From: Desulfovibrio sp. | GTDB taxonomy: Bacteria > Desulfobacterota > Desulfovibrionia > Desulfovibrionales > Desulfovibrionaceae | DNA length: 63,630 nt | NCBI GenBank assembly: GCA_014804965.1 | Contig: JAAUYU010000025.1 | Location: forward strand, 17,747-81,376 | Direction: 5' to 3' | In this document: positions 20,329-55,539 of the stretch, piece by piece | Position numbering within the stretch: position 1 is the stretch's first letter | Layout of the letters: every line of letters begins with the position of its first letter | Notes under the pieces: model-generated | What the model was told of the DNA's origin: nothing | The model's input: only the letters and a program-made list of their open reading frames with translations | Database searches by the model: none | Position numbers and translations under genes: made by a program

Positions 20329-20330
20329 CG

Positions 20331-25087: not shown

Positions 25088-25118
25088 CCTATCCTCGCGC
25101 CTAGGCCCGCAGGCCTCC

Positions 25119-25170: not shown

Positions 25171-25260
25171 GCGTTTGGTTTCTCCGAAAATCAGGAGGGT
25201 TCGCCACAAGTACACAGCCCGTAAAACACTGCTGCCTTTTTTGTTACAGGAGGGTTAATA

Positions 25261-26685: not shown

Positions 26686-27207
26686 ATGCAAGAAATCCGC
26701 ATTGACGTGACACGCCAGACAGAGGAAGAGCTCGCGCTTGCGAGGCGCCACGCGCAGCTGGTGTTCCGGTTCAATCACACCATGCCGGAAACACCGGAAT
26801 ACACTACCCTGATGCGTGAGATTTTTCCCACCATGGGCGAAGGGAGCGTGGTCTTTGCGCCGCTCACGGCCATCAGGCCGCACATGGTGCAGATCGGGAA
26901 GAATGTCGTGGTCATGAACGGCTGCCTGATGATGGCGGCCGGTGGCATCTTCATCGGCGACAACGCCATGCTGGCGGCCAATGTGCAGCTGTTAAGCAAC
27001 AATCATGACCTTGTGGAGCGGCAGGTCATCACCTGCAAGCCCGTCCATATCGGGGCGCGGGCCTGGATCGGCGCGGGAGCCACCCTTCTCGCGGGGGTCA
27101 CCATCGGGGAAAATGCGGTCGTGGGCGCGGCCAGCGTGGTCACGCATGATGTGGAGCCGGACACCATTGTGGCCGGAAACCCCGCGCGTTTTATTCGCAA
27201 GGTGTAG
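26686..27207 (+). CDS. Sugar O-acetyltransferase (maltose/galactoside acetyltransferase family)
   Basis: Mac-like N-terminus followed by hexapeptide repeats IGARAWIGAGATLLAGVTIGENAVVGAASVV and GNPARFIRK. Confidence 0.8.
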   Translation: MQEIRIDVTRQTEEELALARRHAQLVFRFNHTMPETPEYTTLMREIFPTMGEGSVVFAPLTAIRPHMVQIGKNVVVMNGCLMMAAGGIFIGDNAMLAANVQLLSNNHDLVERQVITCKPVHIGARAWIGAGATLLAGVTIGENAVVGAASVVTHDVEPDTIVAGNPARFIRKV

Positions 27208-39588: not shown

Positions 39589-42500
39589 CTAGAACTCATA
39601 GCGCAGCACGCCAAACAGGCCCTGGTTGGCGGTGTGCTCGCCGAACTGGGCGATATAGTTGATGCCGCCGGAGAAATTGCCCGCCCTGAACTCCACGCCC
39701 GCGCGGCCGCCATACGTGATGTTGTCCATGACCTGGCTCTCGAAGTCCTGCTCCGCATGCGCGCCCGCATAACGCACCTTGGTCGTGGCGTAGGTGTCGC
39801 TGAGGGTCGGGATGGCCTTGAGGTTGATGAGCGGCGTGATTTCCCAGCCGCTCTCCAGCCGGAAAGGCTTGGTCAGCACGAGGCCGAAGGGCATGGTCCA
39901 GACATTCTGGTGTGTGCGCAGGCCGTGCAGCACCTCCTCGCCATTGAGGGTGGCGTCAAAGGGCTCGGTGACCATGTGCAGGTAGCGCACCCCGAGGTGC
40001 GGGCGCAGGTTCACATATTCGGTGTCGATCTCGTACTCGGCGCGGAGGCTCATGCCCAGCGACCAGGCCGGGATGTCGGCCTTGAGCTCGCTGCCGTCCA
40101 CCTCGCCGGGCAGGTCCTGCCGGACCTTGTTGTAAACCGAGGTATAGTCGATCTCGGCGTCGAGGCTGAAGGCTCCCGGCTTCCACACTCCATAGGCCCC
40201 GATACCCCAGAAATTGGCGTTGTTCCGGGTGGTGGCCATGTCGCCCGTGCTTTTCACATAGCCCGCACCAAGATTGAGGCTCAGGCCCGCGCGCAGGGTA
40301 TTGCCCCAGGTGTAGTCGCCGCCGATGGCGAGGCCGCCGATGCCGCCGCGGAAGCCGTAGCTCGCCGTGCCTCCGTCGAGCCCGGAATGGTCGATGGATT
40401 CATAGAGCGGGATGGCCCAGAGCGCGAAACTGTGCCGGTAGAGGTCCTCCTGCCCCAGCTTGATGCGCGAGTAGATGGCCGACTCCATGGACTCGCTGGC
40501 CGCGCGGGAGAGCCTGGGCACGCCGCTGGCCACGCCCACGCTCTTGGTGTGCGGGGCCTTTTCCGTCACCGAGAACTGCCCTTCCTTGCCGTCGCCGAGG
40601 CGTGTGAGGCCCAGCAAGGGATTGCTGGAAATGAGGTTGGCCCCGTTCCAGGCCGTGTCATCGGCATAGCTGGTGGTGATGTTGCGGCCGAGCGCCACAT
40701 AGGTGTGACCCGGCGTCACATGGTCGATATAAATTTTCGCGCCACCCGGCACCGTGGTGGCCGTGGGGGAGGCGGCGCTGATGGCCCCCGGCACGGAGGC
40801 GGGGAGCGCCCGCGTGGCCACCGCGGGATTGGGGTAGTTGACCCCGGCCTTCGCGCCGTCAATGGCGAGCAGGGAATTGGAGGAAAAACTCAGGGAAGGC
40901 GCTCCTGCCCTCGCCTGCGGAGCGGCCCGGCTCATGGCGCGCGTGGCCGCGCCCACCGAGGCCGTGTGATCCACGCTGAGCTGCGCGCCCAGCGTGAGCG
41001 GCGAAAACACGCCGAGCACCGCGGCGGAGGGGCCCATGCCTGCCCGGGCCGTGATGGCCCTGAGGGTCCCCGTATCGCGCGTGCCCGTGGCGAGACGGCC
41101 GTTGTGGCCCACGGTGATGTCGCCGTCCGTGAGGCTGCCCTGGCCGCTTGCGGTGACGAAGTTCTGCACCGCGCCGAAAGCCTGACCCGCGCCGGCGCCC
41201 ACGCTGAGCGCATGGCCGTTCAGCCGGAGGTTCCCGATCTTCACGTCCGTGACTGCGGCCGTGTCCGCGGCCGCGCCGACCTGCATGTCGCCCCCGGTGA
41301 CGGCGACGGAATTGACGCTGGCGTCGATGCCGTTGTGCAGGGTGACGGACTGGGCGCTGAGCGTGTCACCGCTGAGGGCGCCCCCGCCGATGCGGGCGGA
41401 ACCGGCCACGCCCATGGTGGTGAAGCGGCTAGCGCCATTATTGTTCACATCCATCCTGCCGCCCACCCAGGCGGCCTCATTGTGCGCGACGAGGGCGCCG
41501 CCCGCGCCGTATTCCGCATTCCCCACCGCCTCTGTGCCCGTGATGCTGAAGGAGCCGTTGTGCAGGGTGAAGTCGCCGGAGCTTCCGCCGTCGATGTCGC
41601 TCTTGACCACCATCAGGCGCCCGGTCTCAATGCGCGAGGGGGTGGAGACGCCCGCGAAGTCTGTCACCTCGCCAGCCGCGATGAGGGACGCCTTGACGTT
41701 GGTCCCGGTAAGCGTCTTGGCCGGGGTGATGGAAAAGGGGCCACCCACGCTTATCTGGCCGCTGGTGCGGTCAACGCCGGCCACGATGCTGCCCCCGGCG
41801 CTGATACTGTCGGCCGTGAGGTTGCGGACGCCGATGCTGCCCCCGGCCTCGATGGTCAGATGCCCGCTCCCCTGCAAGACATTGTAGGCGCGATATGCCG
41901 AGCTGTAGGTGCCGATGTCTCCCCCGGCGCGGATGGTGCCCGAGGCATTCTGGATGCCGCCATCCCCGAGTTGATGCGGATCCAGGAAATAGATGTTGCC
42001 TCTCGACTCCAGCAGCGACCCCGCCTGCATACGGTTGGCCGTGCTCCCGAGGACCCCGTTGATGTGGACATCCAGGTTGGAGGTCACCTTGCCCCCGTTC
42101 TGGATGTCGAGATCACGGATGGTAAGCCTCGCCTGGGAAAAGACCTCCATGCCGCTGGCAACGCGCACGGTTGTCACCATGTGCTGCCCGCCCCCGATGA
42201 GGCGGATATTGCCGTTCTGCGCGTACATTTCATTGAAAGGCGCGTTGCCTGACCCTACGGCGCCATTGACGACAAGGTTCGCGCCGTTGGTGACAACGCG
42301 CGAAGCGCTGCCGGATATACTCCCGATGTTGCCGTCGATGGTCACAGTGGGGCGATTGGATGTGGCTCCGGTCCCGACGATGACGGTGCTCTGGCCGGTG
42401 CCTCCAAGCGAAAGAGTACCGGAAAAGGTGCCCTTCTGGAGCACAAGAGTGGCGTTGCCGCTGTCCGATGAAAGGGAGAAGCGCGGCGTGCGGCTGGTAC

Positions 42501-42762
42501 TGCCGGTACTGGTGAACAGCACACCGCCATTGTTGCCTGTGAGGGTGAGGGTGCCATTGCTGTATATGAAAGCGCCTGACCGGTTCGTGACAGTTATCTG
42601 CGCATAGGTATTGTCGCCGGAGAGTGACGTGCCGCTGTACGTGCTGTTGGGATCATTTGTCGCGCCAGCCGGGGACGGCGCAAGGCAGAAGCCGAACAGC
42701 ACCGCGGTGAGCGCGGGAAGCAGACCCTTGAGAAAAGAAGTTTCATGCGGAAAAGCAGTCAT
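39589..42762 (-). CDS. Autotransporter (type Va) outer-membrane protein with a large Gly/Thr/Asn-rich passenger
   Basis: Signal peptide ending PAGA-T. About 750-aa repetitive beta-helix-like passenger. C-terminal about 280-aa amphipathic beta-barrel ending LRYEF. ATG 42762 with AGAGG RBS is preferred over the TTG at 42783. Confidence 0.85.
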   Translation of the reverse strand: MTAFPHETSFLKGLLPALTAVLFGFCLAPSPAGATNDPNSTYSGTSLSGDNTYAQITVTNRSGAFIYSNGTLTLTGNNGGVLFTSTGSTSRTPRFSLSSDSGNATLVLQKGTFSGTLSLGGTGQSTVIVGTGATSNRPTVTIDGNIGSISGSASRVVTNGANLVVNGAVGSGNAPFNEMYAQNGNIRLIGGGQHMVTTVRVASGMEVFSQARLTIRDLDIQNGGKVTSNLDVHINGVLGSTANRMQAGSLLESRGNIYFLDPHQLGDGGIQNASGTIRAGGDIGTYSSAYRAYNVLQGSGHLTIEAGGSIGVRNLTADSISAGGSIVAGVDRTSGQISVGGPFSITPAKTLTGTNVKASLIAAGEVTDFAGVSTPSRIETGRLMVVKSDIDGGSSGDFTLHNGSFSITGTEAVGNAEYGAGGALVAHNEAAWVGGRMDVNNNGASRFTTMGVAGSARIGGGALSGDTLSAQSVTLHNGIDASVNSVAVTGGDMQVGAAADTAAVTDVKIGNLRLNGHALSVGAGAGQAFGAVQNFVTASGQGSLTDGDITVGHNGRLATGTRDTGTLRAITARAGMGPSAAVLGVFSPLTLGAQLSVDHTASVGAATRAMSRAAPQARAGAPSLSFSSNSLLAIDGAKAGVNYPNPAVATRALPASVPGAISAASPTATTVPGGAKIYIDHVTPGHTYVALGRNITTSYADDTAWNGANLISSNPLLGLTRLGDGKEGQFSVTEKAPHTKSVGVASGVPRLSRAASESMESAIYSRIKLGQEDLYRHSFALWAIPLYESIDHSGLDGGTASYGFRGGIGGLAIGGDYTWGNTLRAGLSLNLGAGYVKSTGDMATTRNNANFWGIGAYGVWKPGAFSLDAEIDYTSVYNKVRQDLPGEVDGSELKADIPAWSLGMSLRAEYEIDTEYVNLRPHLGVRYLHMVTEPFDATLNGEEVLHGLRTHQNVWTMPFGLVLTKPFRLESGWEITPLINLKAIPTLSDTYATTKVRYAGAHAEQDFESQVMDNITYGGRAGVEFRAGNFSGGINYIAQFGEHTANQGLFGVLRYEF

Positions 42763-42968
42763 CACACACCTCTGCTTGGGCAAGGGTCATGGGTGGAGGC
42801 GGCGCGGGCTCCCTGCCGTCGCGCCAGTGAGCACGCGGCGGGGTTCGCAGCGCCCGCAGCCGGGCGGCGCTGCGAAACAGTCGAAAAGCCTCCGGCTTCA
42901 GTCTGCCCGTGCCGTGGCCACCATTTTGTCGATCCTGCTATTGCATATTCCCAAACTGCGCAAATGTC

Positions 42969-43356: not shown

Positions 43357-46296
43357 TCACTGTAACTTTATCCAGCTTTCCTTGTTGTAGATCGGTCCCT
43401 GGATATTATACACATGTAGGAAGTTAAAGGTGTTTTTCTTGTGTGCTGCCCTTCGCCAATTGCCGAACACATGCAAGCGCTGCCTGGCCTGGTCCTGCCA
43501 GGGAAATTGTTTTTCCTCGGCACCTGCAGCCAGACTATTCCGGATTATGGTCACCACATCCCAGTTGGCCATGAGTGATTTTCTGTCTATTCTTAACTCG
43601 CCATGGGCTCCGAATTCCTTGACCAAGAGGAGCCCGTGCAGAAACAGGGGAGGTTCCGGCGCGGACGCCCAAATTTTCCGTATCTCTAAGCTATCACCAT
43701 GATGATCATGATCAGAAACAAGAATAATCTCTGTATTATTATATACATTATTTTTTTTCATCCAATCAAACCATGCAATTAATTTTTTCAATGTAAAATA
43801 TTCTGCTCGTATATGATCATCAGAAAAACCCTGTGCCAATTCTTTTGGGTCATATTTCCAGGCTTCTTTCTTTTCTGGCATACCATTTTCATCTAAAATC
43901 CATGGGAAATGTGGTAGCAAATTCATAATATATATAAAACAATTTTCATCGGTATCCGAAATTTTCGATGCATATAGCGGAAGCTCTAGACCTGCTAGCT
44001 GGGCTGTTGTAAATCTGATATCATAGCTGGCTTTGCTTATTGTTTTATTCCACCTCCCATTATCATATAATTTATTTTTATATGTTAACGGTGAGATATT
44101 GTAAAAGCCAAGAATATTGAAAAAACCGCTGAAACTCTGACTCGTATTCATATTAAAGTTATGCATTTTTTTCCACTTGCTCAGGGCACCCTCCCACAAC
44201 AGCCAGGGGGCATTCACAAAATTCGTATTTTCTGTTGTTTTTAAGTATGGATAAACTAATTCCGGATGAAAAAAATCGTTGTCGAATACGGAAAGCCTGA
44301 AATTCCTCTCTTGTAATTCGCTGAAAAACTTTCCAAAAGTGGCGGCAAATTTTTCCTCAAGACTCTTGCTGGCATCCTTATTCAAGTTAAAGGGATGTGC
44401 CGCTTCACCGCCCAGGATAGGCGCCTTTCCAAAAATTGTGGCATTCCCCGCTGTCACTACATCCTCATACCAGATGAAGCCGTCAAGTTCGGTTTTCAGC
44501 TCAGGGTGACGCTCCAGGAGTTGGTTCATGTTCCCACCGGTAAACATGTCCAGCATGACGACAACAATATTTTTCCCATGCCTGCTGAAGGTAAAAAATT
44601 TTTCTACGTGCTCAGGAACTTTAGTATCATCGCTAATTTCACCTTTGGACTTCTCAATGCCGGCGATAGTTGCCTGAGCTGTTGAGAAGTGGACACCTAC
44701 CATGACAAAGAGCAGGGCAAGCGCACTGTAGATCAAGTTTGAAAATATTTTCAGCTTCCTGAACCAGATGAGCGCGAGAAAAAGGAAAAAAACCCCCATG
44801 AAGATAAGAGCGTCCACATCCCTGTTATACCATTGGTCAAGGGCTTCGGGTTTTTGCAGGATAAAGGCGTCCATCACCCCCACATCGGGAGCGACGATGA
44901 AGCAAAAGGCAAGGGCGGCAAGCGCGCACATGCTGAACAGGGCGCCGAACAGCCAGCGCACCGGCCGCAGCAGCACCCCCGCCACGGCAATGCAGATGAG
45001 GATGGCCAGAAAGACCCCAAACCTGTTGGAGGCGAAATCCTCCAGGCCCATATCGAACACCAGGGGATCGGAACTGAAGACCATGAACGGAAGATACACA
45101 AAAACCAGGAATGCAAGGAGTGTCACGGCTGGCAGGAAGAGCGCGCCAAGCTCTTTTTTCTGCGCACGCGCGTCGGCAAATATCCTTGGCGCGAACTTTT
45201 CACAAAAGAGGACGCCGGCCAGCGCGAGGCCCAGGAGGAGCAGGCGCACGACAACCTTGATGAAGCTGCCCTGCCAGACCCCATATTTGGCAACGATAAA
45301 GACAAATCCGGCTGCCCCGGCGAGCGCCACCAGAAGCTGGAGGAGAGAGAAGCGCCTGAGCCACGCCACCTTTTTATAGGCAAGGATGCCGATACCGATG
45401 AGCAGCAGGAGGGCCGCCAGCAGCGGGACCGCCACCGTCAGCGAAAGCCGCAGCCGCCCCCAGGCCGCGCCGAGCAGGAACAGGGCAGCCGCGCCCATGA
45501 GGATGCGCGGGCCCGAAAGCTGCACCCGCCAGGCAGCCAGCCTCGGCGCAAGGGCCTCCGCGGCGGCGCCCGCGCTTTCGTACCGCGCCTCAAGCCAGTG
45601 CATGGCCTCAGTCCAGCCCGGGCGCTTCATCCAGTCCTTCTGGACGATGTTCTTGCAGAGGGAATAGATGTTGTTAAGCGTCCAGTAAAAGGTGAGACCT
45701 GCCGGAGAATTGTAGAGAAGCACCAGGAAGATGCCGGCCATGCCGTAGAGCTGTATCTTGTCCCGCCTCGACAGGCCGTGGGTGTAGAAAAAGGCGGAGA
45801 ACAGGTTGACGGCGGTCATGAGGATAGGCAGCACATTGATGTGCACCCCGCCGATAGACAAAAGGCCGTCCGGCGCGCCGAGATTGCGGATGGGCCCGAA
45901 GCTCACGCCGTCGAGCACGGCCATGTTGGAAAGCAAAAGATAGGCGGCGAGAAAGAAGGGAATCTGGAGGAGGAGGCCGATGCTGGCGCGCAGGGTCATG
46001 AGCGGGCTGAAGCCGCACTGCTTATACAGGGTGGAGAGCATGGCAAAGCGCTCCTGCCCCCTGAAGCAGCGACGGATCATTTTTTCCTTGGGCTCCATGC
46101 GCTTTTTGAGCGCCCTCTCCTCCTCCTGCCATCCCTCAGCCTTGTTGTAGATGGGGAGCACCGCCGTATTGACCACCAGGCTCACGCCGATGAGCGCCAG
46201 CCCATACGAATGGGTCAGCGCATAGCCGCCTTCAAATACGGCCTTCATGCAAAATTCAATGGGCGCGATAAAGATGAGCCAGAGAAAGTCAAGCAT
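43357..46296 (-). CDS. Fusion protein: N-terminal YidC/Oxa1-like insertase domain, polytopic membrane block, C-terminal sulfatase/LtaS/OpgB-like (alkaline-phosphatase superfamily) domain
   Basis: aa 28-216 align by eye to the YidC/SpoIIIJ core (GLALIGVSLVVNTAVLPI..., LQIPFFLAAY, SPAGLTFYWTLNN). aa 250-540 contain about 8-10 TM segments. aa 574-900 carry NIVVVMLDMFTGG and ILVSDHDHHGD, typical metal and active-site motifs of LtaS/EptA-type enzymes. Confidence 0.75.
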   Translation of the reverse strand: MLDFLWLIFIAPIEFCMKAVFEGGYALTHSYGLALIGVSLVVNTAVLPIYNKAEGWQEEERALKKRMEPKEKMIRRCFRGQERFAMLSTLYKQCGFSPLMTLRASIGLLLQIPFFLAAYLLLSNMAVLDGVSFGPIRNLGAPDGLLSIGGVHINVLPILMTAVNLFSAFFYTHGLSRRDKIQLYGMAGIFLVLLYNSPAGLTFYWTLNNIYSLCKNIVQKDWMKRPGWTEAMHWLEARYESAGAAAEALAPRLAAWRVQLSGPRILMGAAALFLLGAAWGRLRLSLTVAVPLLAALLLLIGIGILAYKKVAWLRRFSLLQLLVALAGAAGFVFIVAKYGVWQGSFIKVVVRLLLLGLALAGVLFCEKFAPRIFADARAQKKELGALFLPAVTLLAFLVFVYLPFMVFSSDPLVFDMGLEDFASNRFGVFLAILICIAVAGVLLRPVRWLFGALFSMCALAALAFCFIVAPDVGVMDAFILQKPEALDQWYNRDVDALIFMGVFFLFLALIWFRKLKIFSNLIYSALALLFVMVGVHFSTAQATIAGIEKSKGEISDDTKVPEHVEKFFTFSRHGKNIVVVMLDMFTGGNMNQLLERHPELKTELDGFIWYEDVVTAGNATIFGKAPILGGEAAHPFNLNKDASKSLEEKFAATFGKFFSELQERNFRLSVFDNDFFHPELVYPYLKTTENTNFVNAPWLLWEGALSKWKKMHNFNMNTSQSFSGFFNILGFYNISPLTYKNKLYDNGRWNKTISKASYDIRFTTAQLAGLELPLYASKISDTDENCFIYIMNLLPHFPWILDENGMPEKKEAWKYDPKELAQGFSDDHIRAEYFTLKKLIAWFDWMKKNNVYNNTEIILVSDHDHHGDSLEIRKIWASAPEPPLFLHGLLLVKEFGAHGELRIDRKSLMANWDVVTIIRNSLAAGAEEKQFPWQDQARQRLHVFGNWRRAAHKKNTFNFLHVYNIQGPIYNKESWIKLQ

Positions 46297-47688
46297 CTAC
46301 TTGCCCTCTTTTGCAGTCAGGTCAAGGATGGCGTCCACCACGGGCCCGGCGGCGCAGCCGAAATTGGCGACATTGGCGTCGCGCACCTTGCGGATGCGCT
46401 CCGGCCAGTCTGTTTCTGCGGCCAGCCTTCGCACGAGGGCGGGGAGCCGCTCAAGGTCGGGCGTGGTCAGGGGGATGCCGATATCCGAAAGGACAGCCGC
46501 ATTCCAGCGCGTGTAGTGGAGATCAAATGCCTCAAAGCCCCCGGGGTCCTGGTTTGGCTCATAGAGCGTGATAACGGGCCGGAAGAACACAAAGGCAAGG
46601 TCAAAAATGACGGTGGAAGTGTCCGATACCATCACCGCGGCGCGCCGGAGCGAGTCAAAGCCGTCGGGGTTCCTGTCCCAGGTGATGTTCTTGTAGCCTG
46701 AGAGCTCACTTTCCATCCGCTCCATGAGCTTGACATCGGAAATGTAGCTTTGCGGATGCGGCCGCAGAATGACGTTGAAGCCGGCATCAGCGAGGATGCG
46801 GGGCACCGCCGAGCCAAAACGGTTGAACATGCCGATCTTGCCCCAGGTGGGAGCTATCAGCACGCAGTTGGGATCCGGCGTGTTCTCGCCAAGGGCCTCC
46901 CGGCGCGCCACCAGCCCGTCAAGATAGGGGACGCCTGCGATGGGGAGTTCCTTGGGCTTTGTCCCCCGCAATGCTTCCAAAGTCCGCAGGGATTTTATCT
47001 GATAGTCACCGTTGCAGATGACCGCATCGTAATAATCAAAGGCGAATAACTTGTAATAGTGGATGTCGCCCACCGAATGCAGCACATGGATATACTTGCC
47101 CACACCCTTGGACCGCCGGATCTGGAGTACCCCCACCCCGGGCGTGGTCAGCACCAGGGCATCGGCTTCGAGAAAGTTCAGGGCCGTGTACGCCGCGTTG
47201 CCTTTGCCGATGTAGCGGCATGTGATGCATGCGGGAAGATCGGCCGTGAAACAGGGATCATCTTCAGTGGAAGTCAGGTACTCCACCGCTTCGCCGCGAC
47301 GACCAAACTCTTCCAACAAAGGGCGGAATGTGCCCCAATAGTTGGCGGATTCACCATAGATGACGAGATGCTTGTGCTTCAGCAGCCTGTCCTTGCCAGT
47401 GACCTTGAACAGGAATGTTCTCGTTAGAGAGGGAACCTTGCGCGCCATGAACCACGCGCCGGAAAGCACACCGATACATACGGAAAGCAGCATGCTACCC
47501 GTTCCAGGGTCCAGGTACGCATGTGAGGTACATGGTGTACCTAAGAGGAGGGCTCCTGTTATAAAAAAAACATTCAAGACTGTGGTTGCTTTTTTCAAAA
47601 TCGTAGTCTTCCTTTCTTGGTAACATTCCATAATGCGTTCGGGTTCTTGTCCGCTGTAAGCAAAGAAATATATAGTTTCGGACCCCAA
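46297..47688 (-). CDS. CDP-glycerol glycerophosphotransferase (TagB/TagF) family protein with an N-terminal membrane anchor
   Basis: C-terminal half carries VLIAPTWG..., ILRPHPQSY and MVSDTSTVIFDLAF, as in TagF-type enzymes. Two N-terminal hydrophobic segments. Start uncertain (TTG 47688 or ATG 47631). The stop TAG abuts the next ATG. Confidence 0.7.
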   Translation of the reverse strand: MGSETIYFFAYSGQEPERIMECYQERKTTILKKATTVLNVFFITGALLLGTPCTSHAYLDPGTGSMLLSVCIGVLSGAWFMARKVPSLTRTFLFKVTGKDRLLKHKHLVIYGESANYWGTFRPLLEEFGRRGEAVEYLTSTEDDPCFTADLPACITCRYIGKGNAAYTALNFLEADALVLTTPGVGVLQIRRSKGVGKYIHVLHSVGDIHYYKLFAFDYYDAVICNGDYQIKSLRTLEALRGTKPKELPIAGVPYLDGLVARREALGENTPDPNCVLIAPTWGKIGMFNRFGSAVPRILADAGFNVILRPHPQSYISDVKLMERMESELSGYKNITWDRNPDGFDSLRRAAVMVSDTSTVIFDLAFVFFRPVITLYEPNQDPGGFEAFDLHYTRWNAAVLSDIGIPLTTPDLERLPALVRRLAAETDWPERIRKVRDANVANFGCAAGPVVDAILDLTAKEGK

Positions 47689-47820
47689 GAAAAAATCACA
47701 TGCGACTAATCCTAAAAAGGGATTTATATATTCATCTACAGATTATAAGCTTATTCTCCAAATGCAATCGATAGTGATCATTAGCTCGAGAGAATGCATA
47801 TCTATATAAGATAGTGTAAA

Positions 47821-49404
47821 TTACCGTACTTGTGTATAGGGAATAACCCAAAGGATTAGAAAAATTGCGGTAAACAACGCACCCATCCCTATCGAAGCAA
47901 AAACAATTCTCTTTGTAACTCTAATCTGCGTGGGGTTCTTTTCGCTTTCGGGCATCACAAACAGGGCCTGTCGTTCACGCGTTTCCTCTGGGGTTACTTT
48001 TGTTAGCGAACTCGCAATAACTATGCCGAGGATATTGAGCACAAGACCAACAAAGAACGGATCCAAATAAAGTGGTGGTTTAATACCAGCAATTGACGTA
48101 TATATCTTAGCAGCCCCGCAGCCTACAAAGCCAAGTAACATGCCAGTGAAAGCACCCGCTTTTGTGATCCTGCGGCTCCAGATACTTGCCACGCACACAG
48201 GTAACCAGGAACACGCAATTACTGTCGCGCCGAGAAACATAATCCAGAATACCTGTGGCGGATTCCACGCTGCAAGCAGCATTACTGCCGTCGCAGACAT
48301 GATGATTGCGATGCGGCCGGCCATGAGTTTTTTTCTGCCATCACGTATACGCACCAGGTCATTTGCCACTGCGGAACCGATGATTGAAAGAAATGTGGTC
48401 GCAGACGAGATGCCGGCGGCCAGAACACCTGTAAGCATGATTACACCCAGGGACAGTGGTACAAGGTGTGTGGCGGCCCAAACAATGATATGAGATGGAC
48501 TTTCCAAGGGGGGTTCAAAATAATTGAGCAGGACTGCTCCTGTAATCACGAAAAATTCAATTAAGAAAACAAAAAAAGCGGCGATTATGGAAGAGCGAAT
48601 AACTGCATGCTCATCCTTGGCCATCAGGTAACGGGTGGCTTGCCAGGGACCGACCATGCAGACGGACATCCAGACAATGCCATAGCAGAGCATCCAAAGA
48701 AAGTTTTGTGCAGCCGTCGGGTAGAGATAGCTCGGATCTCCTCCTGCCGCCAGTTTACTGGGGAATTTCTGGGCGAGTGTTTCCACTACATGAAACCAGC
48801 CTCCACCACCGTTTATCATGGCGAGGATGACGATAATGGTGATGATCGTAAAAAAACCGAACATTATAGTGTCAGTAATCAGAACACCTTTGGACCCAGA
48901 GGCAGCGGTTAAAATGGTGAAGGTTACCAAGGCGAGCAGAATGCAGAGGGTGTAATCGATGTCTGTGACAAGTGTCATCAGAGTGCCGATACCCTGCATC
49001 GTTGCAAGTAGATACACACTAATGCTGATTAATTCCGTTATCGCAGCCAATTTTTGAACCTTTAGAGAATTAAAGCGTTTGCCGAGAAACTCAGGAATCG
49101 TCACACACTCACTGCGCCTAATATACCGGCCAAAAAAAACACCACCAAGAATATATCCTGCTACCTGTAAGGTATCGACACCCATCAGAGGTGCAAATAA
49201 TCCGGCAAAGGATTCGCCGGCATCCCCAAAATAAAGTCCTGTACTAGCGTAGGAGGCGACAAGGGAGCCGACTAAAAGAAAAACCGGTGCATTCCGCCCG
49301 GCTACAAAAAAATCATTGGCATTCCTAACCTTGCTGCTTATCAGCACGCCAATAAAGATATAGGCGAGCATGGAAAGCAACATTCCAAACAAAAAAGGGT
49401 TCAT
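47821..49404 (-). CDS. Sodium:solute symporter (SSS/SLC5) family transporter
   Basis: 527 aa, about 13-14 TM. N-terminal DFFVAGRN motif typical of SSS proteins. Confidence 0.85.
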   Translation of the reverse strand: MNPFLFGMLLSMLAYIFIGVLISSKVRNANDFFVAGRNAPVFLLVGSLVASYASTGLYFGDAGESFAGLFAPLMGVDTLQVAGYILGGVFFGRYIRRSECVTIPEFLGKRFNSLKVQKLAAITELISISVYLLATMQGIGTLMTLVTDIDYTLCILLALVTFTILTAASGSKGVLITDTIMFGFFTIITIIVILAMINGGGGWFHVVETLAQKFPSKLAAGGDPSYLYPTAAQNFLWMLCYGIVWMSVCMVGPWQATRYLMAKDEHAVIRSSIIAAFFVFLIEFFVITGAVLLNYFEPPLESPSHIIVWAATHLVPLSLGVIMLTGVLAAGISSATTFLSIIGSAVANDLVRIRDGRKKLMAGRIAIIMSATAVMLLAAWNPPQVFWIMFLGATVIACSWLPVCVASIWSRRITKAGAFTGMLLGFVGCGAAKIYTSIAGIKPPLYLDPFFVGLVLNILGIVIASSLTKVTPEETRERQALFVMPESEKNPTQIRVTKRIVFASIGMGALFTAIFLILWVIPYTQVR

Positions 49405-49523
49405 CGGGCACCCCTTTTATTTTTGCTTGCATCTTCATAGTCTTTCTTAACGCGTATCCATGCCGCAAAAGCAGCACCGGAAACCCAGATGCCAAAAAAA
49501 ATCACGAGGAGATATTCCATCAT
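49401..49523 (-). CDS. 40-aa single-TM peptide (MMEYLLVIFFGIWVSGAAFAAWIRVKKDYEDASKNKRGAR), candidate symporter small accessory subunit
   Basis: Not in the ORF track because it is under 60 aa. Hand-translated. GAGAGG lies 9 nt upstream. Its TGA overlaps the symporter ATG (ATGA at 49401-49404). It starts 6 nt after the upstream stop. Confidence 0.45.
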   Translation of the reverse strand: MMEYLLVIFFGIWVSGAAFAAWIRVKKDYEDASKNKRGAR

Positions 49524-49529
49524 AAGCAA

Positions 49530-51305
49530 TCACCTCTCACTTCTATCTGGTTGTTCTAATACCATCTTTCTATAATTTGCCATTTTTTCGTACCATACTG
49601 GTACATTTTTCATCTCAACATGATTTAGCGCACTTTTATATAGACCCCAAACAAACCAATAGTAATAACAAACCGCGCTGCAAGCGAACAAGTGTTTTTT
49701 TTCTTCAATCGTAGTCATACGACCGTAATAGGGAAATAGCAATTTGTCAATGTCTTCCAATGGCACGTCGGACATACTAAAAAGTTTACAAATATCAAAA
49801 CCAATATCCGAGTCACCTCCGTATTCCCAATCAATCAGCTCAAGCCTGTCATTTTCAATCAGAATATTGTCTGCATAGATGTCATTATGGCAGAGGCATA
49901 TTTGCCATTTGTCGTTATCAAGAAATTCAAATACAGGAAGCATGAATTCCGTTTCGTGCACAGCAATTTTGTATTTTTCATAATCAAGTTTTTTCAACAA
50001 TCCCAGAATTCTGTCACTTTCCTTTTTGTAATCATATTCGAAACCAGAACAAATATTGTTATCATGCAATATTTTAAGCTTTTGGACAAGCAGCCCGATA
50101 TGGCGTGACTCACTAGGTTTAAATGTTTCGGTTTCATTGATAAATTTTGATATCATCCACCCTTCTTCCGCATCCATATAAATAAGGGAATGCGACAGTC
50201 CATTTTTTTTGGTTTCCTGTAACACTGCCCATTCTCTTTTCCTGTCGATTAACAATTTAGAGTTAATACTCGAATGCCTGTAAATATAGGACTCACCATT
50301 CAGTCTAAATTTGAATTTATGATTGGTGAGTCCTTTATTTATTGGTTCTATTTGTTGGATGTCTTCAATCTTGCAATTCAGCACGTTACATATATTTTTA
50401 AAAATATTAACCTTGTTATTGTTGAGGAAGCATGGATCAAAAGCATTAAGTTCTGCCATACTGTCAAACTCTAGAATATCAGCTGGGTCACATGGAAGCG
50501 CCCACAATCGTAAAAGATCGATATCCTTGGCCCAGATTGTTTCCCAATACATATCTTCGACGCCGGGCTGATTCCAAAATTTTGTCATAAATGGAATAAA
50601 TTTGCTCGCGAAGGGATGATCCAAATACGCGTGTCCGTACATTACCCACTGATCGCAGGACGGTTTGTCGGTTGAAATAATCCTTTGTTCCGCATCCAGA
50701 ACAAGTCCTCTTTCAGTTTCGTGGGTTCCCGGTTTGAAGATGGAGCAGTAAAATGCCCGGTATTCATATTGATGAAACATATTACGTGGATAATAATTAT
50801 CGGAACATATAATGTAAGAGTTCCCGAGATACTCTTTTGCGTAGTAAACACTACTATGGGTGTTCTTTATAGAATATTCATTGTTTATCACAAATTTTAC
50901 ATTATATTTTTCGCGTAAGTAGAGAAATTTTTCTATCATTGCTCCTACAACAACAATAATTTCTCTTATTCCTGCATCTCGCAACTGTTCAATCAATCTT
51001 TCTATAAGAATATCCCCTTTGACACTGAGGAGGCCTTTTGGCCGTTCCCAGGAGACCGGCATAAAGCGCTTGCCCAACCCTGCCGAGAGAATAATGGCAT
51101 TTTTTACCCTGTACGGTTCAAGGCTCTCAAGGCCTTCGGGGGCAATTCCGCCTGCTTCATTGAGCTTACCTCGTTGCTTCAGTGTCTCAATCAGCTGGGC
51201 AACATGAGACAAGGGCGTCTTTGTGTATTCGGCTATCTGTGTTGGCGTGGGTAAGCCACCAAGCTCGCTGATATACCGTAAAATAGTGAATTCTTCTTTG
51301 TCCAT
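49530..51305 (-). CDS. Tri-domain protein: winged-helix domain, LicC-like CTP:phosphocholine cytidylyltransferase, LicA-like choline/ethanolamine kinase
   Basis: aa 67-170 (AIILSAGLGKRF...PKGLL...IIVVVG...GNSYIICSDNYY) closely follow the LicC pattern. aa 470-510 (LCHNDIYADNILI, IDWEYGGDSDIGFDICKLF) are Brenner/choline-kinase motifs. GGAGAA RBS. Confidence 0.8.
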   Translation of the reverse strand: MDKEEFTILRYISELGGLPTPTQIAEYTKTPLSHVAQLIETLKQRGKLNEAGGIAPEGLESLEPYRVKNAIILSAGLGKRFMPVSWERPKGLLSVKGDILIERLIEQLRDAGIREIIVVVGAMIEKFLYLREKYNVKFVINNEYSIKNTHSSVYYAKEYLGNSYIICSDNYYPRNMFHQYEYRAFYCSIFKPGTHETERGLVLDAEQRIISTDKPSCDQWVMYGHAYLDHPFASKFIPFMTKFWNQPGVEDMYWETIWAKDIDLLRLWALPCDPADILEFDSMAELNAFDPCFLNNNKVNIFKNICNVLNCKIEDIQQIEPINKGLTNHKFKFRLNGESYIYRHSSINSKLLIDRKREWAVLQETKKNGLSHSLIYMDAEEGWMISKFINETETFKPSESRHIGLLVQKLKILHDNNICSGFEYDYKKESDRILGLLKKLDYEKYKIAVHETEFMLPVFEFLDNDKWQICLCHNDIYADNILIENDRLELIDWEYGGDSDIGFDICKLFSMSDVPLEDIDKLLFPYYGRMTTIEEKKHLFACSAVCYYYWFVWGLYKSALNHVEMKNVPVWYEKMANYRKMVLEQPDRSER

Positions 51306-51337
51306 TTTACTTCTCCAATTAACATAAAAACGTTTAA

Positions 51338-51372
51338 CAAAAAAGGGGACACATTTTTTACAGTTCCCCCTT
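51338..51372 (-). promoter_or_regulatory. Terminator-like hairpin plus U-tract inside the 5' leader of the island operon (candidate attenuator)
   Basis: The minus strand reads GGGGGAACUGUAAAAAAUGUGUCCCCUUUUUUG. That gives about 7 bp with one bulge, then U6, ending about 30 nt before the start codon and upstream of the SD. Confidence 0.3.
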
Positions 51373-51465
51373 GAAATTCATGAGGTTGGAACGAGAACAG
51401 AACTCCCAACCCTTTGAGTGCCATTCAGGATTCCGGATAGCCCCCTGTTTGTCCTTATTTTTATC

Positions 51466-51494
51466 CTTATATTTCAATGAGTTTTGAGCATCAA
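51466..51494 (-). promoter_or_regulatory. Candidate sigma70-type promoter of the island operon
   Basis: The minus strand reads TTGATG (51494-51489), 17-nt spacer, TATAAG (51471-51466). It lies about 160 nt upstream of ATG 51305. Confidence 0.3.
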
Positions 51495-52412
51495 GCTTGC
51501 TGCCCTTCCCGATCGTAGTATTTTCCTATCTGACTGATGGTAGAAATGCGCTTGAAAATCGGGTGTCTCGTGTCAGCCACGAAACTCCTCACTCCTAGCT
51601 GCGATGGAATTTTCTATCACGAAGATAGACGTTTATCAAGGACGGGAATTTTGGCGTCGTCTTTTGTCGTCCAGCTTATGCCAAATTACCCATGTGGAAA
51701 GCTTTGCCGGCAATGACATAATAAAAATAATCAGATTACTGCTTCCATTCTCTGTTGCACGCCAGCTCGCTTCGTGATTCGTGTGCATCTTGTAAGGATA
51801 GTTTTTTTGAGATTATTTCTTGCCAGCCTTATACCTCAAATTTTACCTTAGAGTGTACACTGCTATTTACTATCAGCAGTCCTAAAATATGCTCATACAT
51901 ATAAAATGATGAAGTCCTTTCCGAAATTTCCTGTCATTATGCGCGAATAATGCATGCCTGCTATTGCACCAGCCCAGAAGAAGTCCTTATGATACTTTCA
52001 CACACGAGATAAAAAGTTCGTACCGGGCATAGCCCATTCTCTTGCAGGCGTGGTCCGAGAGTTTTTCTTCGCTCGCAAGTGAAATATGGCTGGCAAATTT
52101 CGCGCAAGTGTCAGGCTTTGTTCCCAAAACGTACTCCGCTTTCTCAGGTGGTGACACTACCATGCCTCCGGCGCGCATACAGCCGATAATTACCAAAAGT
52201 CCGCGGCAGACGCCCTCGAGTATCGCAATGGCTGGCGCTGTTTTTTGGGGATGGCTTTTGCCTGTTCTCCGCATTTTCACTCGTCCTTTTGCTCGCCGGC
52301 TCCGTTGCCAAGTGAGCCTCTTGCGCCGCAGAGTAGGGGCGCCGTACCCCAGACCCCTTAAACGCCAGTTCCGCCAAGCGCCCGAAGCCCTTGGCGGAAC
52401 CGGAAAAATTCC

Positions 52413-52488
52413 TGGTGGAGAAGAAGGGATTTGAACCCTCGACCCCCGCCTTGCGAAGGCGATGCTCTCCCAGCTGAGCTACTTCCCC
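52413..52488 (-). tRNA. tRNA-Ala(CGC): tRNA-Ala, anticodon CGC, CCA encoded
   Basis: Hand-folded 76-nt cloverleaf: acceptor GGGGAAG/CTTCTCC with the G3:U70 Ala identity pair, anticodon loop TTCGCAA, T loop TTCAAAT. Confidence 0.93.
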
Positions 52489-52950
52489 ACAGGTGGAGCT
52501 GTTTTGTAGTCCGGGCCGGGGAAGATGTCAAGGCTTGTATGCGGGGACGGGGGAGTGGGTCGCATCAGGCGGGCGTGGGCAGCGCTCGGTGGGGGAGTCC
52601 CGCTGCGAGTGGGTACAGTCCATGCAGTCCGGCCAAAACAGGCAAGGCCACGTCTGCCGCCACAGGAAGGCGTGCGGTCGTGCAAGCCCCGCAAACGCGG
52701 ATGCGGCCACGCGAGTCCACCAAGAGTCGCAGCAACCGCTCTTCCTTCGCACGCGTCCACCCACCCCCGCCATTGCCATCGGGCCGCGGATGGTCTATAC
52801 TGCTGTCAAAACATAGCATTTGACTAGGTGGGCCCTTGCCCGGCGTGCCGCATACGCCGGGGCAGGGCTGTCCTCGTGCCCGGTTTGCCGCGATGCCTTT
52901 TCGCGCGGGAGCCCAGCGGCCGGACGTCTGCACTGCGGGCGCGGCCGCCC

Positions 52951-53090
52951 GGGCGTGTGCGCGTTGCCGTTTCGCGAGCCCGGTGCCGCCGGGCCACGGG
53001 AAGGGCCGGGCGAAAGACAGGGCCAGCGCTTGTCCGGAGCGGGCTTCTGGGCTTGAGCTTCTGGGCGCGGGCGTGTGCGCGTTGGCGTTT
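52951..53090. repeat. Two copies of a 22-nt direct repeat, GGGCGTGTGCGCGTTG(C/G)CGTTT
   Basis: Copy 1 is 52951-52972 and copy 2 is 53069-53090, with 21/22 identical. They lie in a GC-rich 0.7-kb non-coding stretch upstream of the kinase gene. Confidence 0.6.
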
Positions 53091-53205
53091 GCCTGTTTTC
53101 GCGCGCGCCCCACAAGGCAGCCCCTTGGCGAATGGCAGCCGGCCCGGCATATATCGGTGCGCCGCTTCGTGTCCTTGTGCCTTGGAATTTTAAGGGAGCA
53201 GTCCC

Positions 53206-55539
53206 ATGCGCAGGCGAGACAAGATTTTCTACAGCAAGCTGCTCCTGCTCTTCCTCGGCATCGTTTCGCTGCTGATCTTCTTTTACACCATCAAGCTGCA
53301 CGAGGTCATCGAGCGCAACATCCTCTTCAGCGTCAACGAGGTGGCCGAGCACGACAAGCGCGCCCTGCGCACCTGCCTCGAGCTTTTCCTGGACGAGCTT
53401 TCCGGCGTGGAGAAGCGCCTCGCCGTGCAGGGCACGTCGTCGCTCCGCGAGCTGGAGGGCCAGCTCAACCTCGAGGCCGCCACCACCGCCTTCACGCGCC
53501 TCTTCATGCTGGCCGAGGACGGCCGCATCTTCACCGACAACTACCTTATCTATACTCGCGACCAGGAAAGCCTCGGCGGCCGCTTCGACTTTCTCCCCCT
53601 GTTCGAGGCCCGCGACAGCAGGGTGCTCGTGCTGCGCTTCGACGACAACGCTGAATTTGCGGGTATCTCGCGCGAGTCCATCCTCTACGCCATGAAGCTC
53701 GACGACTTCAGCGTGGACGGCATCCGCATGACCACCCTCCTCGGCTGCACGGACATCAGCTTCCTGCAGGAGCACCTCATCATCGAGGGCTTCGTCAAGA
53801 ACGGCAAGTCCTACGGCGTGAGCGCCGTCATCGACATGAACGGGGCCTATGTGGTGGGCGAAAAGCGCGACATCTACCTGCGCAACGACACCAACTTCTT
53901 CACCCGGCTCGCCGCCGGGAAATGCAGCCTCACCAAGCGCGACATCGTGGCCCGCATGGCGAAGCGCGAGGACTTCAGCTTCTACCTCGAGGACGGCGAC
54001 GGCAAGAAGCTCGTCTATTGCTCGCCCTTCGCGGAGCGGGAGGACCCGAAGCTCGACTGGTACCTCGTCATGGTGGTCAGCAATGACTTCCTCGAGGAGC
54101 GCCAGGCCACCTTCTCGGTCATGGGGCTTTCGCTGCTCGGGCTCGTGGTGCTGGCGCTGGCCCTGCTCATGCTTTACGGCATCTCGAGCCGCAAGAAGCT
54201 CCACGAGGCCCACGAATCCGTGCGCGTGCGCAGCGAGTTCCTCTCCAGCATGAGCCACGAGATACGCACGCCGCTCAACGGCATCATCGGCCTCAACCAC
54301 CTCATTTCCTCCCATGTGGAGAACCCGGCGCGGCTTCCGCAGGTGCGCGACTGGCTCAACAAATCGCGCAGCCTCGCGGACTACCTCATCGCGCTGCTCA
54401 ACGACGTGCTCGACATGACAAGGCTCCAGGCGCGCAAGGTGCATATCGCCCACGAGCGCTATTCCATCACCGCCATGATCGCGGACGTCATCTTCATGCA
54501 GGCCTCGCACGCGGAAAAGGCGGGGCTGCGCCTCACGCTGGAGGAAGCCGTGCCCGACCCCTGGGTCATGGGCGACGAGACGCGCGTGAAGCAGGTGCTC
54601 ATCAATATCATCGGCAATGCCATCAAGTTCACGCCGGGCGGGGGCTCGGTCACGGTGTCCGTGCGGCAGGAGCGCATGGACCGCCGCCATGTGCGCACCT
54701 ATTACCGCTGCCGGGACACGGGACCTGGCATGAGCAGGGCCTTCCTGCAGACGCTCTTCGACCCCTTCACCCAGGACCCCTCCGTCCAGAAGAACACGGC
54801 CCTCAAAGGCTCGGGCCTGGGGATGCCCATCGCCCGCGAGCTCGTGCTGGCCATGGGCGGCACCATCGAGGTGGACAGCGAGGAAGGCGCGGGCAGCACC
54901 TTCACCGTCACCATTCCTTCCGAAATCGCGGGCAAGCGCCGCCGGGACGAAGCGGACGAGGCCCCGCGCGAGACGGCCGCGCCCACGCCCAAGGCGCGCC
55001 CGGCCCCGGCCCCCCCCGAGGCTTCGCCTGCCGCCACCGGGGGCGCCACCACGCCCGGCACCGCTCCGGCCACGGCTGCGGCTTCGACTCCCGCTCCGGC
55101 CGCGCCCGCCCCGCCGGAGCCGCCGCGCAAGGGCCGCATCCTCCTCGCCGAGGATGCGGAGTTCAACGCCGAATTTCTCATGGAGCTGCTCACGGACGAG
55201 GGCTTCTCCGTGGTGCACGCCAAAAACGGCAAGGAGGCGCTGGAAATTTTCGCGGCCTCCGGCGAGGACGAATTCGCCGCCATCCTCATGGACATGCAGA
55301 TGCCCGTCATGGACGGCTGCGAGGCCACGGCCGCCATCCGCGCGCTGAAAAGGCCCGACGCCGAGACCGTGACCATCTATGCCTGCACGGCCAACAGCTT
55401 CAAGGAGGACATGGACAAGGCCATGGCGAGCGGCATGGACGACTTCCTCATCAAGCCCATCGACATCAAGGTGTTTTTGCAAAAAATGGCGGCCATCAAC
55501 TGCGCGCCCGCAGGGGGCGCAGGCAGGGGAAAGCCATGA
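53206..55539 (+). CDS. Hybrid sensor histidine kinase / response regulator with a periplasmic (Cache-like) sensor domain
   Basis: N-terminal TM, about 270-aa extracytoplasmic region, second TM, HisKA SHEIRTPLNGIIG, HATPase GSGLGMPIAREL, a Pro/Ala-rich linker (nt about 54937-55131) and a REC domain ILMDMQMPVMDG. Confidence 0.9.
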   Translation: MRRRDKIFYSKLLLLFLGIVSLLIFFYTIKLHEVIERNILFSVNEVAEHDKRALRTCLELFLDELSGVEKRLAVQGTSSLRELEGQLNLEAATTAFTRLFMLAEDGRIFTDNYLIYTRDQESLGGRFDFLPLFEARDSRVLVLRFDDNAEFAGISRESILYAMKLDDFSVDGIRMTTLLGCTDISFLQEHLIIEGFVKNGKSYGVSAVIDMNGAYVVGEKRDIYLRNDTNFFTRLAAGKCSLTKRDIVARMAKREDFSFYLEDGDGKKLVYCSPFAEREDPKLDWYLVMVVSNDFLEERQATFSVMGLSLLGLVVLALALLMLYGISSRKKLHEAHESVRVRSEFLSSMSHEIRTPLNGIIGLNHLISSHVENPARLPQVRDWLNKSRSLADYLIALLNDVLDMTRLQARKVHIAHERYSITAMIADVIFMQASHAEKAGLRLTLEEAVPDPWVMGDETRVKQVLINIIGNAIKFTPGGGSVTVSVRQERMDRRHVRTYYRCRDTGPGMSRAFLQTLFDPFTQDPSVQKNTALKGSGLGMPIARELVLAMGGTIEVDSEEGAGSTFTVTIPSEIAGKRRRDEADEAPRETAAPTPKARPAPAPPEASPAATGGATTPGTAPATAAASTPAPAAPAPPEPPRKGRILLAEDAEFNAEFLMELLTDEGFSVVHAKNGKEALEIFAASGEDEFAAILMDMQMPVMDGCEATAAIRALKRPDAETVTIYACTANSFKEDMDKAMASGMDDFLIKPIDIKVFLQKMAAINCAPAGGAGRGKP

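Follow-up and report, generated by a model that had tools for sequence, protein, structure and literature searches.

The Lic-1 pathway of Haemophilus and Streptococcus pneumoniae, with LicB, LicA, LicC and LicD, proceeds through import, a kinase step and CTP-dependent activation, and enzymes of the LtaS/EptA type transfer glycerol phosphate, phosphoethanolamine or phosphocholine, taken from a lipid, to glycans, lipid A or pilin. Here we describe a locus whose gene products resemble members of both systems and are joined by a TagF-like transferase. The locus lies in a 63,630-nucleotide stretch of DNA from a gut Desulfovibrio sp. (contig JAAUYU010000025.1, positions 17,747 to 81,376), hereafter the window, and comprises five co-directional genes on the minus strand (43357–51305). 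In order, these encode a LicC-LicA (LicCA) fusion, a 40-amino acid peptide, a sodium:solute symporter (SSS), a TagF-like transferase, and a 979-amino acid protein that joins a YidC-like to an LtaS-like domain. Each part belongs to or lies near a known family (LicC/LicA, SSS, TagF, LtaS/EptA, YidC). What is new, judged against the searchable literature, is the combination: the YidC-LtaS-like fusion, its strict pairing with a TagF-like enzyme, and the interchangeable cassettes for CDP- or CMP-activated head groups that stand beside the pair. We cautiously favor the reading that the locus represents one allele of a modular pathway by which a small phospho-head group is attached to the cell envelope; what the head group and its acceptor are, and how the transfer works, is proposed from sequence, predicted structure and gene context. 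Literature searches returned nothing relevant on a fusion of YidC with a sulfatase or LtaS domain, or on a TagF-like enzyme that uses CDP-choline or CMP-aminoethylphosphonate (CMP-AEP). A preliminary description of the window, made from the sequence, had listed the five genes in this order and had called the system possibly undescribed; the open reading frames and the literature searches agree with it on both points.

The enzymes LtaS, GacH, EptA (MCR-1), PptA, BcsG and OpgB combine a transmembrane (TM) module with an extracytoplasmic domain that carries a Thr nucleophile and Asp/His metal ligands (for PptA and phosphocholine, see PMC10434233), and the 979-amino acid protein shares this plan. 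Its AlphaFold2 model has a pLDDT of 81, with most of the C-terminal domain at 84–97 and a few 10-residue blocks at 61–80. Among the top 50 Foldseek matches to that domain are MCR-1, PbgA, LtaP and sulfatases, with probability 1.0 and E values of 2e-7 to 7e-6, and the alignments to full-length MCR-1 and PbgA run over 632–687 columns, which exceeds the soluble domain alone. While MCR-1 is the best fold match, LtaS is the best sequence relative: when the profile of the fusion family is compared with the Protein Data Bank (PDB), the best match is Staphylococcus aureus LtaS (2w5q, E = 9e-6), with H796 aligned to the His of the LtaS NHYPF motif and D862/H863 to the Asp-His of its GDH motif. The roles of D583 and T620 were assigned by motif position rather than by residue-level alignment; these two residues, together with H796, D862 and H863, are invariant in the fusion-family alignment. 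In S. aureus LtaS we take the metal ligands and Thr nucleophile to be E255, T300, D475 and H476, plus H416. The LtaS-like domain, as its sequence suggests, retains the metal-binding and Thr-nucleophile residues. Direct Pfam support for a sulfatase domain was sought and failed: PF00884, which is carried by some homologs, gives no match at E ≤ 0.01 in the 979-amino acid protein, and the call rests on the structure and profile searches.

Beyond its escape from PF00884, the protein departs from the LtaS/EptA types in its fused YidC-like domain, which brings the total to ∼14 TM helices, and in its genetic coupling to a cytoplasmic pathway for a CDP-activated head group (CDP-X), whereas the types known so far are supplied by bulk phospholipids. 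From hydropathy and the positive-inside rule, 5 + 9 TM helices are predicted, with the LtaS-like domain in the periplasm, and AlphaFold2 predicts the middle region (residues 241–560) to be helical. The N-terminal domain resembles the YidC/Oxa1 insertases in its five-TM core, which Foldseek aligns to YidC 6al2 with an rmsd of 3.7 Å over 216 columns; PF02096 matches residues 31–218 with 71.8 bits against a cutoff of 35, and YidC2 (3wo6) aligns to residues 9–215 with E = 5e-7. Unlike the insertases, however, it is the N-terminal domain of a large enzyme, it scores far below every NCBIfam cutoff for YidC equivalogs and also below those for subfamilies, and the groove arginine (R72 of Bacillus halodurans YidC2) is aligned to Asn43, with Asn found in 109 of 110 homologs. 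A positive charge in the groove is described as always kept by canonical YidC homologs in one report (PMC8920935). The near-invariant loss of this Arg disfavors a standard insertase role. The YidC-like domain is also the best-conserved part of the fusion, at 45–95% identity across the family versus 23–80% for the LtaS-like domain. The same three-part architecture recurs in hundreds of homologs, and the open reading frame is intact here.

The gene directly upstream encodes the TagF-like protein, which shares with TagB, TagF and TarF of wall teichoic acid synthesis a GT-B fold, PF04464 in homologs, and a cytoplasmic, membrane-associated catalytic domain. In the protein itself PF04464 stays below its cutoff of 22.1 bits, at 17.1 bits (E = 0.003), while homologs at 50–84% identity, mostly of ∼428–440 residues, often carry PF04464 and are named as CDP-glycerol glycerophosphotransferase family proteins. 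Its AlphaFold2 model (pLDDT 82.6) has TagF (3l7i) as top Foldseek match in the PDB with E = 1.5e-11, other GT-B enzymes following within tenfold, and no member of the family alignment departs from the motifs APTWG and RPHPQS. The N-terminus (47500–47631, minus strand) begins like a signal peptide ending in AHA, and continues with an invariant YLDPGTGSM motif and then a TM helix. It could be cleaved and exposed outside, or could form a hairpin whose conserved loop touches a partner; the catalytic domain is predicted to be cytoplasmic by hydropathy and the positive-inside rule. Use of a CDP-alditol donor is suggested by the neighboring cytidylyltransferases. In contrast to TagB, TagF and TarF, this enzyme is paired with supply genes of the LicCA, AEP or CobD type rather than with TagD alone, it carries the N-terminal YLDPGTGSM hairpin, and its hosts are both diderm and monoderm. 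Given the non-polymerizable choline or AEP head groups, it would also have to be a single-transfer enzyme.

The fusion and the TagF-like enzyme occur together far beyond Desulfovibrio, in hundreds of species of the gut and rumen. Relatives of the fusion are found in at least 569 genomes in a scan of one genome per species, and the carriers include Desulfovibrionaceae, Mailhella, Sutterella, Spirochaetia/Treponema, Lachnospiraceae, Oscillospiraceae, other Clostridia, Eggerthellaceae and one Photobacterium. Among 1.84 billion cluster representatives, 2,372 profile matches are obtained at E ≤ 1e-30, and the family forms ∼2,400 clusters at 50% identity. A TagF-like gene lies at most two genes away in 48 of the 71 loci with a full-length fusion, and nearly always it is directly adjacent; these loci span at least six lineages, among them Desulfovibrionaceae, Sutterella, spirochaetes, Clostridia, Eggerthellaceae and Photobacterium. 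The reverse look-up, from two TagF-like proteins on long contigs, finds the fusion next door in both cases, with a small cytidylyltransferase upstream. In 13 of the 71 loci, two to four tandem fusion paralogs share a single TagF-like gene; a Spirochaetia locus (L014, 479–14430) has four, with one TagF-like gene and a LicC-like gene after them, and two more loci (L057 and L080) have three each. These data identify the pair, present in diderms and monoderms, as the real unit, so that the diderm host, to which the preliminary description had drawn attention as an anomaly, is none.

The neighbors of the pair are variable, although genes for nucleotide activation and for import abound among them. 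A nucleotidyltransferase is encoded within five genes in 24 of the 48 paired loci, and the genes for activation and import range over LicC-LicA, PntC-like NTP-transferase fusions, TagD-like cytidylyltransferase, IspD/TarI and ABC importers; glycan genes encode GT2, GT4, GT25 and Bac_transf proteins, and sometimes LicD. One further locus (L095, 6598–7951) has a truncated EutH, of the ethanolamine permease family, beside a TagD-like cytidylyltransferase, a TagF-like gene and a fusion, and this remnant hints at an ethanolamine-type head group there. The PntC-like fusions or AEP-type importers of several paired loci recall the tailoring of surfaces with phosphonates through PntC and CMP-AEP, in which a LicC-like enzyme likewise activates a small zwitterionic head group bound for the surface. 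In the account of Rice et al. 2019 (PMC6697681), the downstream step is assigned to LicD-like enzymes or glycosyltransferases, and TagF, sulfatase-fold and YidC proteins are unmentioned.

In the window, the supply genes upstream of the pair are those of the LicCA cassette. The 591-amino acid fusion matches PF00483, PF12804, PF01633 and PF01636, with a weak match to PF09339 (IclR-type helix-turn-helix). Its LicC domain matches pneumococcal LicC (1jyk) over the full domain length with E = 5e-36 in a PDB sequence search. The kinase domain passes the PF01633 cutoff of 29 bits with a score of 55, matches the LicA choline kinase 4r77 with E = 9e-10, and keeps the DWEY and WxxW motifs; its best NCBIfam matches, GntI and ThiK, are both below cutoff. 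In contrast to the Lic-1 pathway, LicA and LicC are fused here and carry an added winged helix-turn-helix (wHTH) domain, an SSS and a small peptide would serve as the importer instead of a LicB (DMT) permease, and the downstream enzymes are TagF-like and LtaS-like, no LicD being detected in the window, the part of the genome covered, by tblastn with two LicD queries (best E = 1.1), as the preliminary description had stated. The head-group pocket differs as well: where pneumococcal LicC has D105, W136, Y190 and D192, the residues here are Cys, Arg, Tyr and Glu, with a gap in the alignment around W136. The three substitutions (domain at 50400–51100) are present in 120 of the 120 closest LicCA homologs, which sets these proteins apart as a LicC subfamily, possibly with a substrate other than phosphocholine. 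The LicCA fusion would supply a nucleotide-activated head group, putatively CDP-choline or another CDP-alcohol of that kind; choline itself would be a plausible head group, though not an established one.

The SSS protein (PF00474, E = 4e-29; TIGR00813, E = 7e-35) is presumed to import the substrate of the kinase, and the 40-residue peptide is presumed to be a small companion subunit of this transporter. The SSS is 66% identical to one adjacent to LicCA in a Clostridia locus (L019) that also has a TagF-like/fusion pair, and a similar peptide (MEY..IF.G.W.S.A..R.KKD) is encoded between LicCA and SSS in that locus. LicCA homologs of ∼590 residues, with matches to helix-turn-helix Pfam families, are common in Clostridia and Bulleidia, at ∼50–55% identity. 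The order LicCA-peptide-SSS is seen in all three of the Firmicutes loci examined (L089–L091), with 29–33-residue open reading frames at the position of the peptide. All three lie inside polysaccharide gene clusters; in L091 LicD is the gene immediately before the cassette, and the edge of the locus encodes a protein with choline-binding repeats. Because of this shared order and the 66%-identical SSS in Clostridia, LicCA, peptide and SSS together appear to be a portable Firmicutes module, the equivalent of licABC, that was laterally acquired and plugged into the Desulfovibrio locus. The pairing of LicCA with a TagF-type enzyme, which the preliminary description had singled out as not fitting known systems, is indeed observed, but it brings together a gene pair and a portable LicCA-SSS cassette that stands elsewhere beside LicD.

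The comparison with sister Desulfovibrio metagenome-assembled genomes (MAGs) shows that such cassettes are exchanged at a fixed site. The flanks are common to the sister MAGs, with a hybrid kinase and tRNA-Ala to the left and the autotransporter, cupin, MsrAB and Zip genes to the right, at 83–92% DNA identity to the window. In blastn comparisons with the sister alleles, similarity ends ∼60 nt past the tRNA, at a terminator hairpin (window 52351; 52351–52360 versus L084 and L086), resumes at 47523, and continues through the TagF-like gene and the YidC-like domain to 45593; it is ≤68% or absent across the TM and LtaS-like part, and returns at 43064. The left segment, which encodes wHTH-LicC-LicA, the 40-residue peptide and the SSS in the window, is replaced in one sister allele by a TagD-like cytidylyltransferase with an ABC importer that resembles the putative 2-aminoethylphosphonate transporter PhnS2/T2/U2 (E = 1e-99 to 1e-126, below equivalog cutoffs). 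Other sister alleles carry a fusion of an NTP-transferase to a CobD-like threonine-phosphate decarboxylase together with an octopine-dehydrogenase-like gene, and another (L093, 982–2978) carries genes for two SAM-dependent methyltransferases ahead of the TagF-like gene, with no nucleotidyltransferase visible on its short contig. GC content is below flank level across the locus in all alleles. The preliminary description had suggested checking whether the five families co-occur: the TagF-like gene and the fusion do so, and the LicCA cassette is swapped between strains. We also considered whether the LtaS-like domain varies together with the cassette, and rejected this, the closest domains (70–80% identity) accompanying a different cassette.

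The tRNA-Ala had been proposed as the point from whose 3′ end a genomic island was entered. A classical tRNA-integrated island is rejected: no integrase is found among the called genes of the window, the 3′ end of tRNA-Ala is present in a single copy in the window with no flanking direct repeat, and the core stands at the corresponding site in the sister strains. Indeed, no empty site is seen among them; every sister strain is filled, keeps the TagF-like/YidC-like core, and differs in the sub-segments alone. The tRNA, which is present in other alleles too, and the hairpin beyond it (52365–52403) mark the end of conservation in the left flank and are not an integration scar. The exchange of modules at a fixed site, the low GC content, and the lack of an integrase or of a repeat of the tRNA end argue for a surface-antigen locus with exchangeable modules rather than an integrative island. 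The spacer between tRNA and licCA (51306–52350) has no Rfam match beyond the tRNA, no convincing open reading frame, and no DNA similarity to the sister alleles by blastn. On the left, the exchangeable cassette is bounded by this spacer, which is presumably the site of the promoter and could be either a leftover of recombination or a stretch with a regulatory role. Promoter and terminator scans of this 1-kb leader give matches at consensus or chance level, and a riboswitch or other RNA element was considered and rejected, Rfam returning the tRNA alone.

In the mechanism that we propose, the cassette would import an amino alcohol (choline or a close relative), phosphorylate it and convert it to CDP-X. 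The TagF-like enzyme would then carry out a single transfer of phospho-X from CDP-X to the hydroxyl of a membrane lipid, either diacylglycerol or a glycolipid; polymerization would be impossible, as head groups of the choline and AEP types offer no second hydroxyl. The YidC-like domain, with its groove Arg changed to Asn, would move the lipid-linked head group to the outer leaflet, where the periplasmic LtaS-like domain would pass phospho-X on to an acceptor at the surface, a glycan such as lipopolysaccharide (LPS) or a polysaccharide being the most likely, and the lipid would be returned for recharging. LtaS/EptA-type enzymes draw their head group from a lipid donor. Glycerophospholipids are scrambled in vitro by Escherichia coli YidC (PMC11047089). 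On the basis of these two observations, a dedicated phospho-X lipid that is flipped and then consumed by the fusion is the most economical model, and the presence of one TagF-like gene for several fusion paralogs fits one donor serving several acceptors. By inference, GtrA/GtrB/GtrC, CsbB/YfhO and ArnC/ArnT offer an analogy in which a lipid carrier is loaded in the cytoplasm, flipped, and used by a polytopic transferase outside, with one loader for several transferases, although the enzyme families are different and a phospho-alcohol rather than a sugar would be carried here. The steps of import, phosphorylation, CDP activation, cytoplasmic transfer and an alkaline-phosphatase-fold enzyme outside, as laid out in the preliminary description, are consistent with the families and the predicted topology; choline itself is a plausible candidate. 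More tentatively, and with a probability that we would place on the unlikely side, the same scheme may extend across phyla as a LicD-independent pathway in which lipid-loaded head groups from CDP or CMP donors are flipped by a YidC-derived domain and installed on surface glycans by an LtaS-like domain. That the head groups in such a pathway include choline-type, AEP-type, aminopropanol-type and others is offered with the same reserve.

Several observations weigh against the favored reading of a dedicated lipid donor and its flipping. Both the lipid-linked intermediate and a role of the YidC-like domain in moving it are pure inference. Because LtaS, EptA and GacH take ordinary phospholipids as donors, the fusion might do without a dedicated one. 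In half of the pairs, no nucleotidyltransferase is encoded within five genes. LicD is also present in some loci (L019 and L040–L042), where CDP-X could therefore go to LicD, and the LicCA-SSS module is found without the pair in the three Firmicutes loci L089–L091. The TagF-like protein is only moderately diverged (83% and 73% identity) between alleles with very different cassettes, and would therefore have to tolerate different head groups; the LtaS-like domain of the window is 80% identical to one that accompanies a CobD-type cassette. The principal rival, which we regard as rather unlikely, is that the TagF-like enzyme and the fusion act independently and that no lipid intermediate is dedicated to the pathway. 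In such a case, with about the same limited probability, the TagF-like enzyme would attach phospho-X from CDP-X directly to an undecaprenyl-linked glycan inside the cell in the manner of LicD, TagB or TarF, and the fusion would use a phosphatidylethanolamine or phosphatidylglycerol donor in the manner of EptA, LtaS, GacH or BcsG; the YidC-like domain, equally doubtful in this role, would be a built-in insertase or assembly chaperone and nothing else, for the fusion itself or for its partners. This accords with established knowledge, since TagF-family enzymes normally act on lipid-linked glycans and the known LtaS/EptA types use bulk phospholipids, and it accords with the failure of LtaS-like identity to track cassette type and with the frequent placement of paired loci in polysaccharide or lipooligosaccharide clusters with GT2, GT4, GT25, Bac_transf and flippase genes. 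It leaves unexplained, however, the consistent adjacency of the pair across phyla and the single TagF-like gene beside several fusion paralogs, and an insertase role sits poorly with the near-invariant loss of the groove Arg, unlike in a standard insertase, and with the YidC-like domain being the best-conserved part of the fusion.

The catalytic residues and the gene neighborhood also bear on whether the locus serves the synthesis of membrane lipids instead, with LicCA making CDP-choline, the TagF-like enzyme making phosphatidylcholine-like or phosphono-lipids as final products, and the fusion remodeling or distributing these between leaflets or membranes, which we consider improbable. A LicCA fusion that feeds phosphatidylcholine synthesis is known in Treponema (T. 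denticola), and this precedent speaks for lipid synthesis. So do the presence of PbgA/YejM, a lipid-related protein of the LtaS fold, among the top structural matches and the scrambling of lipids by YidC (PMC11047089). Nevertheless, the Thr/Asp/His catalytic set is intact, unlike in a pure lipid binder, the tandem paralogs and the strain-level hypervariability at low GC content resemble surface-antigen loci, and the neighbors are glycan genes. It is, finally, very improbable that the locus is an artefact, either a GC mosaic created by chimeric metagenome assembly or five neighbors without a shared function. The 89-kb source contig does come from a MEGAHIT metagenome assembly (ENA ERZ27267593 k119_89396, listed at NCBI as a Desulfovibrio sp. 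MAG), and the GC content changes sharply within the 979-amino acid gene. A Logan assembly, possibly from the same read set, is nonetheless 100% identical across 9.1 kb of the window (45171–54278) and spans three composition junctions, the intact reading frame has its three-part architecture in hundreds of homologs, and the sister alleles have matching gene order and low-GC variable parts. The chimera that the preliminary description had itself raised is contradicted by the identical second assembly, with the same proviso about reads, and by the conserved architecture.

The coordinates of the locus are collected in Table 1. The junctions are tight: 6 nt separate licCA from the peptide gene, the peptide and SSS genes overlap by ATGA, and the TAG of the TagF-like gene abuts the ATG of the fusion gene. 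These agree with the preliminary description; its gap of 132 nt between the SSS and TagF-like genes holds from the TTG at 47688, whereas the gap is 189 nt from the ATG at 47631, and the ATG is favored by the homologs (∼428 residues). Among its domain assignments, PF02096, PF00474, PF00483 or PF12804, and PF01633 or PF01636 are matched directly above cutoff in Pfam, while PF00884 and PF04464 are not, and find their support in structure, profiles and homologs. The autotransporter next door and the tRNA-Ala were both located where it had indicated them. The former directly follows the fusion in every Desulfovibrio allele seen (L084, L086, L092 and L093) and is part of the conserved flank.

Table 1. 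Features of the locus, with GC content and with protein identity between the window and two sister alleles (coordinates are those of the window)
Feature	Coordinates	Strand	Length or residues	GC content	Protein identity
Autotransporter, next gene downstream of the fusion	39589–42783	minus			
YidC-like/LtaS-like fusion	43357–46296	minus	979 residues		
Fusion, C-terminal alkaline-phosphatase-superfamily (LtaS/EptA-like) domain	43357–44616	minus	residues 561–979	41%	50–60%
Fusion, polytopic middle region (∼9 TM helices)	44617–45576	minus	residues 241–560	59%	53–59%
Fusion, YidC/Oxa1-like N-terminal domain	45577–46296	minus	residues 1–240	58%	91–92%
TagF/TagB-family (GT-B fold) phosphotransferase, membrane-anchored	46297–47631 (ATG) or 46297–47688 (TTG)	minus	444 (ATG) or 463 (TTG) residues	57%	73–83%
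SSS transporter (PF00474)	47821–49404	minus	527 residues	47%	
Single-TM peptide	49407–49529	minus	40 residues		
Fusion of wHTH, LicC-like cytidylyltransferase and LicA-like kinase	49530–51305	minus	591 residues	39% (38.6%)	
Allele-specific non-coding spacer, 5′ of licCA	51306–52350	minus	1.05 kb		
tRNA-Ala(cgc) (ARAGORN, Rfam)	52413–52488	minus			
tRNA-Ala with terminator hairpin	52351–52488 (minus strand)				
Flanking proteins					82–95%

The base composition of the locus is a mosaic. Mean GC content is 47.9% for the region versus 64.1% for the remaining window, and the composition claimed in the preliminary description is in part borne out. A uniformly AT-rich foreign operon is rejected, however: per 60-nt line the GC content ranges from 23 to 80%, with ≤28% in 4 of 150 lines and ≥55% in 46 of 150, and the first ∼560 codons of the fusion (the YidC-like domain and the TM middle), together with the TagF-like gene, are at 57–59%. 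A second block of lower GC content (51–57% versus 64–70%) is present elsewhere in the window, at 18186–27000, beginning just 3′ of a tRNA-Val (18186–18261). It encodes a TRAP transporter (DctP, 19330–20328; DctM, 20843–22114), an amidohydrolase, an OYE/Pyr_redox flavoenzyme (23165–25087) and a LysR regulator, and this block may have been acquired separately as a metabolic module.

Phosphocholine, phosphoethanolamine and aminoethylphosphonate displayed by bacteria on their surface influence how C-reactive protein and natural antibodies recognize the cell, how well it resists antimicrobial peptides, and how it colonizes. The enzymes that install them are, to our knowledge, largely unknown in gut commensals. 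In Clostridium, licABC is needed for a phosphocholine-bearing exopolysaccharide that alters host metabolism, in a preprint in which licD is unmentioned (10.1101/2024.06.12.598703). Because it is widespread (at least 569 genomes and ∼2,400 clusters) and stands beside interchangeable head-group cassettes, the gene pair described here is a concrete, testable candidate for the missing installing step, and it provides a natural test of whether domains of the YidC family can specialize in lipid flipping. Should the proposal be true, the swapping of cassettes from strain to strain would change the surface epitope, the pair would represent a new, LicD-independent route to zwitterionic surface epitopes in gut commensals, and the fusion would contain the first natural YidC-family domain dedicated to lipid transport.

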